From: Paecilomyces variotii
Taxonomy: Eukaryota
Reading direction: 5' to 3' (one strand)
DNA length: 64,000 nt
Assembly (NCBI GenBank): GCA_004022145.1
Contig: RCNU01000001.1
Below are positions 41,978-46,402 of the stretch, piece after piece (position 1 is the first letter of the stretch; every line of letters begins with the position of its first letter). The position numbers were made by a program, and so were the translations under genes. The notes under the pieces are model-generated. The model had not been told where the DNA came from, made no database searches, and saw only the letters and a list, made by a program, of their open reading frames with translations.

Positions 41978-44017
41978 TCATCGACGGCGGCCAATCACAC
42001 TCGCCGCTGTCATGGGTTGCAGACCAAGCGGCCCACCACCGACAGGGCCACCGATCGTGGTCTCTGTGATTGTCTTGCGGCGCTTCTGCTCGTACTCTGG
42101 TCCTCGACTGTCGGGACGGATCAAGCGATCGTCATCGTCATCTCGCAGACGCTTGTTGGAGGACAGGGAACCGTTAAGGGCCGAATAGCTTGGGGCAGAG
42201 TTCGTTGTCGAATATGCATCCCCGTTCGGTGCAGTCCCACGAGTATCGCTGACAATGTTGTAGAGGCTATTAGCCGGGGCGCGTGGGGGAGTGTTATATC
42301 CGGGTGCCCACTGCGATTGAGATCCACCAGTGCGAGGGGTGAGTCGGTCGGCGCCATTCTGGTGCGATGGCGACGCGGTCATATCCGGGGAAATGTGGGA
42401 ATGATCCGCCGTCAGAGCCGCCACAGAAGGGTTGCCGGTGTACGTGTACGAGCCACGGTTGGTATTATAGGCCGCAGAGCCGTCCTGGAGATATTCAGTG
42501 CCATGTTCCTGGACCGTCTCTGCCTCACCCGCTCCATGACCCACATGTCCGTTTCCCTGAACATAACGATCTGGTTTCACATCACCCTGGTCAGTCTCAG
42601 ATTGACCTCCTACACCTCTCCCGGGCGGCGGAGCCATCTCGTTCTTAATGTAAGAGGCCGGAGGGAGTGTCTGCCCATAGCTTGGCATCGATGACTGCTG
42701 AGGAGCATACTGAGCCTGAGACTGAGGGGCAGCAGAGTAATATGGCTTGGAGTTATCGTATCCTGATTGACTCTGGTACGACTGCATACTCTGCATATTG
42801 TTCCCTGGCGGAGTGGTGGCTGGCGTCGTGGGCATGGATCGTGCATTGCTCAAGCCAGTATCGATGGACAGTGGTTGCGAACCTTGGACGTTCTGGCTAC
42901 CCCATTCGTACGAATTGCCATGGCTAGGCATGCCCATCATACTCGATGCGCTGGTGGGCGGTGTCGGGAATGTGTGCGCCCGGTCGAGGCCAGGCCGGCT
43001 GCTGGGGTGAACCAGGGCGTTGGATGGTTGAGCCATCTGGGACGGCACTGGAGTCTGCATCGAGTGGTGGTGGTGCAATGTCGGGGGCTGCTGCGAAGCT
43101 TGAGATGTTCCAGGAGGCTGCGTTCCTTCCAACCGTCTCTGCTGGGACTCGTGCACGACCATGTTGGTCCGGGTCTGGTTAGTTGGATGGTACAATAGAC
43201 CTCCAATGTTGTGCACAAATAGCGGGTAGAGAAGATCAGTGATCTTCTCCTTGTTGGCAAAGTCAAGGGCGCGCTCAAAGGGAATCCTATAGTACTGTAA
43301 GCATGCATTACAAATCCTCATGTTACGGGAAGGAGCCAATCCTACCAAACGCCCTTTAGATGCATTGGGCCAATCTTGACCACATGGCGGATCTTCTCGC
43401 TCTTGAGGATACCATCTCGACGGCCTCTGGTCATTCCGGCCACATTCAGGAGCTTGGTACCGTTGATCATATGGTTATCTTCTCGTCGAGCAACACAGAC
43501 ACCCTTGGCTTCCACTTGATAGCAAAGACTCCCTTCATCCTCCCAGAGAGTGGCCGTGACTCGCGGCTTCGCTCCCGGAGGTGCAATCTGGCCAGTAGTG
43601 TCAAAGGCGTATGGCTGGCTCGCTGTGTTCGAGTTCGTCACATATGCATGGGGCGACACGCTATGGTTGCTCATAGCTGTTTTATCACATCACGTTAGCG
43701 CCGAAGTACATTTTTCAGTGTTTGGAGCCATATCAGGACTTACCAGGCAAGGGCAGCAACTGGGCGGGCACCTGGCTCGTCATCGAAGTGGTCGAAGGCT
43801 GGCTCGCCGCTTGAGGGGATGTAACCCCGTTGGCATATCCATAGTGAGAGTACGAGCCGGTGGGGGCATACGTCGTGGAACCGGGATGCAGAACAGGCGG
43901 TTGCTGGTACGGTTGATAGTGGGTCAAGCTCCCCGCAGTGGCACCCTGCGAGGCGTAGGGCTGCGCAGAGGATAGATGCGAGGAATGCACGTCCATGTAT
44001 GGTTGTGTTTGGTTCAT
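41978..44017 (-). CDS. stuA: APSES transcription factor StuA, about 637 aa from the first AUG; exons 44017-43744, 43676-43346, 43286-41978
   Basis: [71 protein letters not shown]-terminus [12 protein letters not shown]-terminal KRRKT. Confidence 0.96.
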
Positions 44018-46402
44018 GCTGCCAATGGAGCTCTGACCTTGGTAGTAGCCCTCCGCGACCGAATTTGATGCCACGCTGTATTCGGTCTGAGCAGAAGAAT
44101 CCAGAGAGAGGCGGTTCTGGCTACGGCCTGCGACGTCCGCAGACGGAGGCGGGCTCTTGATGTCGTTCACAGAGGCCTGGGAGTACCCCGAGATACTCGT
44201 GCGTGAACTGGGGTTGCTGGACCCAGACGATACCGCCGGTGACGTATCCGGGCCACTTGCTCGCAGCGACGGATAGCCCGAAACGGGCGCCTGGTTGGCG
44301 GATGGGAGAGTGAGCGCAGGAAGCTTGTCACCAGACAGTAGAGGCCGTTCTGCAGCGTGATGGTTATACCACGGAATATCCACGGGGCCTCTGGTGTGGA
44401 CCTGGGAAATCGACGGCAGCTCCAGCTTTCCGGTATTGACGGGAAAACGGCTTTAACAGCGGTGCAAAGTTAGAGTGGGAAGGGACGAAGTGTTCACGAA
44501 AAAAGACTCGTGACGTCCCTGTTCAGATCAATAGAACTCGACTGGTGGAGAGTCGGATCCAGTTCTGTAAACGGAAAACACCAAACAGAAACGGATACCA
44601 CGTCACACCGAAAAAGGAGTATACAACCTCGAGAATGAGCTGTATACAAAGTGTGAAGACCACAGGTCGTCAAAAGCAAATGATAATGGGGGCGTGCGAC
44701 AATGCTGCAAAGCAAATAGAAAAGCACCTGGGGAAGATTGACGCTGAACAAATGTTGCAAGCTCGTAGATGGTCGTAAACGTAAAATGCCAGCTGAGTTA
44801 ATGCAGCTGACGATGCAGATGGCTTATGCAGCACTCGCAAATGGAAACTCTACATCAAAACTTTTCTCTTTTTCTTCTCGTCGTCGTCGTTGTCTCAAGC
44901 TGGAAGCGTGACGCAGGAGGCAGCAAGGAAACAACGGAAATGAATAGCCACGAAAGACAGCAGAATCGCTCAACCAGACGAAGACGGGGTTCGTGGGTAT
45001 CGTGTCAAGTCGTAAAATTCGAACAATAACAGAAGCAACTCGATCGGGACGGTTTCGCGAACCAAACGGGCTGCAACGGCAGGCGGTGCGGGTATACAAC
45101 TTGGGGAGGGGCACTTGGTGCAGAACGAACGAACCGAAGGCCGTACTCGGTATCAACAACAACGGTCTATGGAACACGAGATAATTTTCCTCTTTCGTTT
45201 TCAAAATATTTCTTCTTTTGTGCGAACAGCCGTATCGACAAAGAGAGGCAAGCTGGAGAAACAGCAGTCGTAGTGGTGGCTAGTCGTAACGGTCGTAGCG
45301 GGTCGTAGAATGGGAGGGTTCTGTCCTCGTTTGGCACCAGAGATGGACCAAGGAGATAGAAAGTCGCGTCTGTGAGGGATAAAGCACAGCTGTAAGCAAA
45401 TGTTCGTTCTGTACTCTTCTTTTTTTTTTTCGTTTCTCGTGGCTCGTTTCTCAACAGCAGATCATGAATGCTGGAGAGAGGTGGAGGGGAAGAGAAGGAA
45501 AAGGCACAATGCAGGCGGCTGCAGCAGAGATCGGACGGGGGAAGATCAGGTGCATTGACGGGGAAGATCGGAGAAAATGAAGAAACAACAAATAGGGCCG
45601 GTCTGGCTGGTCGTGGTTAAAGTGCAATGATGGTCGGTGTGTATGGTACGAAACAGTGTAATTGCCAGTAGTCGCAGAGGGGAATTGCATTACCTGCTGC
45701 ACTTTCTAGGAACCCATACAAAAAAGTGGAGGCTGGGGCAAACGCCAGAAAGCGGGAGCCGATCCGGTGTTGCAGGATGGCTTGTGCAGGTAGCTTTCTT
45801 TTTTTTTGGTTTTTTTAATTAATTGGGATATGGAAGAGAGAAGGGAGAAGAGAAAAAGGGAGAGAGGGAGGGAAGAGTGGATTATTGCGTGCAGCCGTCA
45901 CAGCGACTTTCTTCTTCTTTGGGAGAGAAAGAAGAAAGGCCTGGATCGAAGCTGGGTTGACTGCGGTGAGCGAGGAAGCTCTTTCGGGGAGAGAGAGGGG
46001 GAAGAGGCTGCGGAAAGGCCGAGCCGTGACCTTCTTCTTCTAGGCGTGGGGAGGGGGGAAAGCCAGAGTTCAACCAGACAAGAGACAAGACAGACCAGAA
46101 GAGGGGGGGAAGAAAGCAGTAAGGCAAGGCTTTTGGGCGTTTTAGCGGGAGGTTGGGACCGACGGGGCTGGACGCAGGGCAGGAAATCACCGGACTGGAT
46201 GGGGGCAGAGGATGCGTTGGTCCTGGGAGGGGGGTTTGGGGCAGGCCCGGCGATTGGCGGGGCCGGGTGGAGCTAGGACCCGGACCCGATGCGGGAACAA
46301 CGTACAGAGAACTCCGCCAGATTGGACAGCTCGACCTCGTTTGTCACCTGTCGTGATCAACAAGTCAGATTGATTGGCATTCGTCCGGCAAAAACCGACA
46401 AG

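Follow-up and report, generated by a model that had tools for sequence, protein, structure and literature searches.

A conserved CUG codon as the probable start of a long StuA isoform in Paecilomyces variotii and related fungi

Where does the StuA protein begin? In many moulds StuA governs how conidiophores are patterned, as well as sexual development, secondary metabolism and virulence traits, and the question of its start is raised by a stretch of 64,000 nucleotides (nt) of Paecilomyces variotii DNA (GenBank assembly GCA_004022145.1, contig RCNU01000001.1; the whole stretch is referred to below as the window), in which the frame of the StuA gene, encoded on the minus strand, remains open far upstream of the annotated AUG. 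Comparison of the window with related loci and proteins indicates that StuA very probably has an additional N-terminal part of 136 residues that starts at a conserved CUG codon at position 44425. We further consider it probable that a CUG-started long isoform and an AUG-started short isoform are both produced by leaky scanning on one messenger RNA (mRNA). A CUG-initiated extension with two isoforms was the main idea of an initial annotation of this DNA, and the comparisons described here lend it support.

The best protein matches of the locus are named StuA or cell pattern formation-associated protein. The APSES/KilA-N domain (PF04383 in Pfam) was detected on the second coding exon of the window (E-value 7e-06; 26.3 bits against a cut-off of 23.8) and, with an E-value of 6.2e-09, on a public Paecilomyces variotii model of 637 residues (P0043), which is 100% identical to the window over the aligned part and differs from it at a few residues further on. 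Judged by these matches, the gene is a StuA orthologue within the APSES (StuA/Asm1/Efg1/Phd1/Sok2) transcription factors.

Upstream of the annotated ATG (44017-44015; context AGC-ATG-A), the StuA frame has no stop between 44452 and the end of the exon, with 145 sense codons preceding the ATG; the initial annotation had recognized this open frame but put its length at 144 codons. As that annotation also stated, there is no ATG in any frame between 44452 and 44018. The start codon that it proposed, an in-frame CTG at 44425-44423 in the context AAG-CTG-G, is correctly placed and would add 136 residues, and a GTG at 44383 lies in frame with StuA as well. Over the 408 nt from 44425 to 44018, where the window has no ATG, dinucleotide shuffles contain 3.73 on average, and 0.65% of 2000 shuffles contain none. 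The elements that surround the two proposed starts are the following.

44423..44425, minus strand: CTG, the proposed start codon of the long isoform and the first codon of the conserved peptide.
44426..44438, minus strand: conserved initiation context, -13 to -1 (C AAY ACC GNA AAR), made of near-invariant bases.
44420..44422, minus strand: GAG, +4 to +6, which supplies the G at +4; present in 39 of 39 loci, never as GAA.
44453..44455, minus strand: in-frame TAA that closes the StuA frame upstream, read from the window sequence.
44018..44425, minus strand: N-terminal extension of 136 codons, without ATG in any frame, delineated by protein conservation and codon periodicity.
44303..44425, minus strand: the most conserved motif, 41 residues, delineated by invariant or near-invariant alignment columns.
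44015..44017, minus strand: annotated AUG, the proposed start of the short isoform; the P0043 model begins there.

The peptide pattern T[EGV]KLELPSI, run against metagenome contigs, brought up 80 related loci, of which we kept 41 representatives that differ by more than 3%; codons were counted on 39 distinct loci. The first conserved codon is CTG and the next one GAG in all 39, whereas the second leucine codon varies (CTC in 18 loci, CTG in 16 and CTA in 5) and third positions vary freely thereafter. Immediately upstream, A at -3 is found in 41 of 41 representatives, as is G at +4 on the other side; ACC occupies -9 to -7 in 39 of the 39 distinct loci; the bases at -9, -8, -6, -3 and -2 are invariant, and those at -7 and -4 are the same in 40 of 41. 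Position -5, the middle of a would-be GNA codon, varies between A, G and T among fixed neighbours, which is a nucleotide-level pattern and the opposite of what coding sequence shows. Conservation begins abruptly at -13, with a mean information of 1.4-1.9 bits at -13 to -1 compared to 0.14-0.28 bits at -60 to -15. By codon position, the information amounts to 0.28, 0.17 and 0.14 bits before -14 and to 0.97, 1.16 and 0.50 bits after the CTG, that is, the coding periodicity in which the third position is the least conserved. In these alignments, a frozen CTG with frozen flanks at the very edge of conservation is the hallmark of a start codon in its context.

The initial annotation held that no upstream AUG could supply this frame, and the related loci agree: in 38 of the 41 representatives, a stop closes the frame 7-177 codons above the CTG and no ATG intervenes, two of the remaining loci run off the contig without an ATG, and the last one (L065), a degenerate duplicate, has ATGs. 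Two further loci that the peptide pattern had missed show the same arrangement as the majority. The L065 contig carries degenerate copies of the motif at 2521 and 2736, 215 nt apart, in different frames and cut by stops or the contig end, which look like pseudogene fragments. Further upstream, at about -36 to -20, a block that would read GHSRP(F/L) is conserved in L015, L017, L020-L029, L036, L039 and L051; since L037 and L038 have it in another frame, together with a stop, this block is a conserved leader element rather than coding sequence.

Downstream of the CTG, the extension is conserved as protein. A protein search with exon 1 yielded 90 matches; 54 of them span 93% or more of the exon, extension included, and belong to Aspergillus, Penicillium, Onygenales, lichen-forming fungi and Dothideomycetes; the other 36 are mostly short models that begin at the AUG, and all nine models from section Nidulantes-type species among the matches are short. 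A HMMER search with the extension alone, without a profile, returned 32 proteins, mostly exon-1 fragments. In 20 aligned sequences, K, L, L, P, S, S and V of the N-terminal motif are invariant. All extension matches are conserved from T-x-K-L-E-L-P onward, and the part upstream of it has no consistent sequence among the models, which suggests that gene finders guessed the annotated N-termini. In long StuA models (within P0001-P0051), T-x-K-L-E-L-P is preceded by 1-130 residues that bear no relation to one another, and other models start at the internal AUG, a pattern that points to systematic misannotation of the start among public StuA models. One Penicillium model (P0013) begins with MLELPSISQ, which, as far as a protein model can tell, would mean that an ATG immediately precedes the CTG in this Penicillium.

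Between the motif and the first in-frame ATG, the frame is preserved in 38 of 38 measurable loci, over lengths of 111-139 codons. Thus, what the initial annotation predicted for orthologous regions, namely a conserved frame and peptide, a conserved near-cognate codon and a bias toward synonymous change, was observed in each respect, with the variation after the CTG concentrated in third codon positions. Variation within the species fits a protein-coding extension as well, small as the numbers are: compared to contigs from the RNA runs X8 and X14, which come from a slightly different strain, the window shows four differences inside the extension (44078, 44084, 44111 and 44408), all synonymous and in third positions, versus five substitutions and two single-base indels in the leader above the CTG.

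Searches aimed at the nature of the extension gave little. Pfam has no family for it among the results for exon 1, the ESM Atlas returned no usable match for the extension, and the structure predicted for the long StuA model P0001 with 47 relatives has a mean predicted local distance difference test score (pLDDT) of 40.8 and a predicted template modelling score (pTM) of 0.25, with the DNA-binding domain also poorly predicted. Among the 90 exon-1 protein matches, the LELPSIS motif was not found outside Pezizomycotina. A protein of 405 residues that is otherwise unlike StuA and has a GATA-type zinc-finger-like end (P0117) carries LELPSIS...WYN...LPAL at residues 175-220; this protein may carry the motif in its own right or result from a chimeric gene call, and it hints that the N-terminal motif could be a portable module. 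The suggestion of the initial annotation that the LPSI/LPAL motifs may recruit co-regulators is speculative. In an Aspergillus-like exon-1 fragment (P0093), unrelated sequence replaces KLELPSISQ at residues ~100-115; an intron or a frameshift could account for this, or the lineage may have lost the start region.

The RNA contigs show how the extension is embedded in the transcript. In those from X8 and X14, both coding introns have been removed (43676/43744 and 43285/43345); two other RNA-labelled runs, X1 and X2, consist of long unspliced contigs that keep both coding introns, and were treated as DNA-like and set aside. Around the CTG, the contigs are colinear with the genome (44162-44633 in X14 record 12 and 44396-45010 in X8 record 23), and therefore no AUG-bearing exon is spliced in across 44162-45010. 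In the leader, joints lead only to 45369, from donors at 45694 (X14) or 46306 (X8), apart from a further joint in X8 that connects 46345 and 46903. Hence the CTAAC...AAG string ending at 44451, which the initial annotation had described as branch/acceptor-like, is present but unused, and the leader next to the extension is a single exon of at least 944 nt. The alternative leader exons recall the two stuA transcripts of Aspergillus nidulans. The transcript parts adjoining the two proposed starts are the following.

43744..44017, minus strand: remainder of coding exon 1, bounded by the joint 43676/43744 in RNA contigs of X8 and X14.
43345..43676, minus strand: coding exon 2, with the first part of the APSES/KilA-N domain, defined by the joints 43676/43744 and 43285/43345 and by PF04383.
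41978..43285, minus strand: coding exon 3 including the stop codon, defined by the RNA joint 43285/43345 and matching P0043.
44426..45369, minus strand: proximal 5' leader exon, genome-colinear and ATG-poor, defined by the RNA contigs and the acceptor at 45369.
44850..44855, minus strand: ATG-TAG start-stop upstream open reading frame (mini-uORF), with the sole ATG of the proximal leader.

Relatives with contigs that resemble complementary DNA (cDNA) give the same picture. Twelve such metagenome contigs contain an uninterrupted, intron-free open reading frame of 750-778 codons from the CTG to the stop, and in all ten whose leaders reach 717 nt or more, the frame is closed by a stop 8-86 codons above the CTG and no ATG intervenes. 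A cDNA joining an AUG-bearing exon to the frame, the finding that the initial annotation named as fatal to its proposal, appears neither among the spliced RNA contigs nor among these ten. Two other routes to an extended protein were examined and rejected: RNA editing that creates an AUG, given that X8 and X14 show no base difference at 44423-44428, and readthrough or frameshifting from an upstream reading frame, given the 430 nt upstream that lack an ATG and the variable distances of the stops in relatives.

The distribution of ATGs around the CTG points to a second start downstream. The proximal leader (45369..44426, 944 nt) contains one ATG against 9.1 +/- 2.4 expected, and none of 1000 shuffles had one or fewer; this lone ATG, at 44855, is directly followed by TAG. 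One-codon uORFs are also present in the leaders of the two closest cDNA-like relatives, L002 (at -405 from the CTG) and L006 (at -339), so that the ATG-TAG may be a conserved start-stop element. Across the related loci, the 400 nt before the CTG contain 29 ATGs compared to 157.8 expected. In the spacers between the CTG and the first in-frame ATG, measurable in 38 loci, there are 12 ATGs compared to 99.7 expected from dinucleotide content and to 63.0 +/- 6.7 in codon shuffles that keep the amino acids and codon usage (minimum of 43 in 1000 shuffles); 27 of the 38 spacers have none. The 270 nt after the AUG, in contrast, contain 288 ATGs versus 187 expected. The first in-frame ATG itself reads MNx.. 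in 38 of 38 loci and, in L002 and L005, lies eight codons upstream of the conserved MNQ. The depletion reaches the conserved AUG and stops there, as fits leaky scanning, in which ribosomes that pass the CUG must reach the AUG.

The following sequence of events would account for these observations. Scanning ribosomes on the long, nearly AUG-free StuA leader would first meet the CUG at 44425, where a fraction of them would initiate, presumably with initiator methionyl transfer RNA (Met-tRNA), to produce a StuA protein of 773 residues that consists of a deeply conserved motif of ~41 residues, a serine/proline-rich (S/P-rich) linker and the rest of the protein. Ribosomes that pass the CUG would scan 408 nt free of AUG and initiate at 44017, yielding the annotated form of 637 residues. 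If both isoforms are made in this manner, their ratio might be regulated. The proposal of the initial annotation that leaky scanning yields two isoforms thus gains support from the conserved ATG-poor spacer.

Several considerations weigh against this reading. The support for CUG initiation is wholly comparative or structural. Retrieval with a peptide pattern fixes T, x, K and L, and consequently only the choice of synonymous codons is free evidence; this evidence assumes that the search tool uses fully degenerate back-translation, and loci with another residue, such as methionine, at the pattern positions escape retrieval. Nor are the representatives phylogenetically independent: they form 11 groups at 60% identity, with 18 of them in one group. 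In 11 of the 38 loci, the spacer contains one or two out-of-frame ATGs. Folding of the region after the CUG (44445-44330) yields -32.4 kcal/mol compared to -32.1 +/- 3.4 kcal/mol for shuffled sequences (z -0.09), that is, no excess of RNA structure there. The RNA contigs cannot reveal transcript starts and so leave room for a promoter inside the leader or the extension. Finally, the break of one X8 contig falls precisely on the first base of the CTG (44425), where the sequence gives way to 25 foreign letters. Loose ends of X8 contigs at 44425 and 47138 have ~18 foreign letters in common, in opposite orientations, which are absent from the window and look like a library artefact, such as an adaptor or a chimera.

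Of the competing explanations, the one that fares best, unlikely as it is, holds that only the long form matters, with the CUG as the main start, the AUG at 44017 encoding an internal methionine, and little or no short isoform made. Selection on the long form is indeed evident from the conserved N-terminal motif and from the invariant context of the CUG, and the short form is a predicted protein. There would be no reason, however, for selection against ATGs in a spacer that only long-form ribosomes traverse, yet 12 are found where 63-100 are expected, and the first in-frame ATG falls at the conserved site, or eight codons before it, in every measurable locus. Near-cognate codons are, moreover, normally much weaker than AUG.

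Quite improbable is an arrangement in which both isoforms exist but the short one is translated from its own transcript, made from an alternative promoter within the leader or the extension. The alternative 5' leader exons (45369/45694 in X14; 45369/46306 and 46345/46903 in X8) would be compatible with it, as would the drop in depth of the X14 contigs toward the 5' end, contig depth being a poor measure. Contigs from both RNA runs nevertheless bridge the CUG, and the depletion of ATGs extends through the 400 nt upstream as well as the spacer, as expected if ribosomes scan the whole stretch.

Non-AUG initiation at a different codon is very improbable. Candidates include an isoleucine codon at +15 (ATH), a second CTN codon at +6 and the in-frame GTG at 44383. 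ATT, ATC and ATA are all near-cognate codons and the isoleucine at +15 is nearly invariant, but the L-E-L-P-S that precedes it is invariant or nearly so, and synonymous sites are frozen only at the first CTG and its flanks, with CTG used for the second leucine in a mere 16 of 39 loci. The GTG, which the initial annotation had offered as an alternative start, fares no better, given that the residue varies between V, A and T among relatives.

The least probable explanation, an AUG-bearing upstream exon spliced to an acceptor near 44451 or 44426, could draw on the CTAAC...AAG string, the AAAG directly before the CTG, the X8 contig that breaks at 44425 and the many public gene models that add upstream ATG exons, but fails on the lack of any joint at 44451 or 44426 in X8 and X14, where contigs spliced elsewhere bridge the site, on the ten cDNA-like relatives that are colinear at T-x-K-L-E-L-P with an in-frame stop upstream, on the base at -1, where 8 of 41 loci have A instead of G, leaving the AG unconserved, and on the absence of anything shared among the N-termini of the models and the artefactual look of the foreign letters.

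Near-cognate N-terminal extensions are known as a class, and the StuA case appears to be a new member. A CUG-initiated isoform is a familiar feature of c-Myc, in which an upstream in-frame CUG and a downstream AUG on one mRNA give rise to two transcription factor isoforms with different N-termini; c-Myc differs from StuA in being an animal gene with an unrelated protein product. Classic studies of A. nidulans stuA, attributed to Miller et al. in 1992 and Wu and Miller in 1997, are said to have described two transcripts, long spliced leaders and mini-ORFs, with translation reportedly assigned to the first AUG. As reported, that gene resembles StuA of the window in its alternative leader joints and its start-stop uORF. 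A literature search at the level of titles and abstracts recovered no description of a non-AUG or CUG-started StuA, although an early remark in the classic stuA papers is possible.

The closest parallel within fungi is cpc-1 of Neurospora crassa, which has N-terminal extensions at conserved near-cognate codons, with initiation partly shown (Ivanov et al. 2017, PMC5487733). Like StuA, cpc-1 encodes a fungal transcription factor and has a long leader and a conserved, AUG-less extension of the main frame above the annotated AUG. The two differ in that cpc-1 has several candidate codons and two regulatory uORFs, whereas in StuA a single invariant CUG marks a sharp edge of conservation, the leader is almost devoid of AUG and the spacer contains none; in addition, initiation was tested for cpc-1, whereas StuA is known from sequence. 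The searchable text of PMC5487733 contains no mention of stuA, asm-1 or APSES. For Candida albicans EFG1, an APSES orthologue, PMC6034079 describes a leader of ~1.1 kilobases (kb) that controls translation; its authors cite the CUG-started long isoform of c-Myc as a precedent but exclude an extended Efg1, since all uORFs end within the leader.

If the CUG start is real, most public StuA models would be wrong, being either short, with a start at the AUG, or long, with an invented N-terminus, and the conserved 41-residue motif would have been overlooked in functional studies. The long-reported translational control of stuA would also gain a concrete mechanism. A further-reaching possibility, which we consider doubtful at this stage, is that the CUG-started long form is the ancestral and fully functional StuA, in Eurotiomycetes, Dothideomycetes and the lichen-forming classes, and that the choice between the CUG and the AUG could be the switch behind the translational control of stuA and developmental competence. 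Under that scenario, the ratio of two regulators with different activity would depend on how stringently start codons are selected (eukaryotic initiation factors eIF1 and eIF5, eIF2 phosphorylation, nutrient state), and decades of AUG-started StuA constructs and annotations would have used a truncated protein. With its single invariant CUG, frozen 13-nt context and AUG-free spacer, StuA would also, given a real CUG start, offer a clean fungal model of near-cognate initiation.

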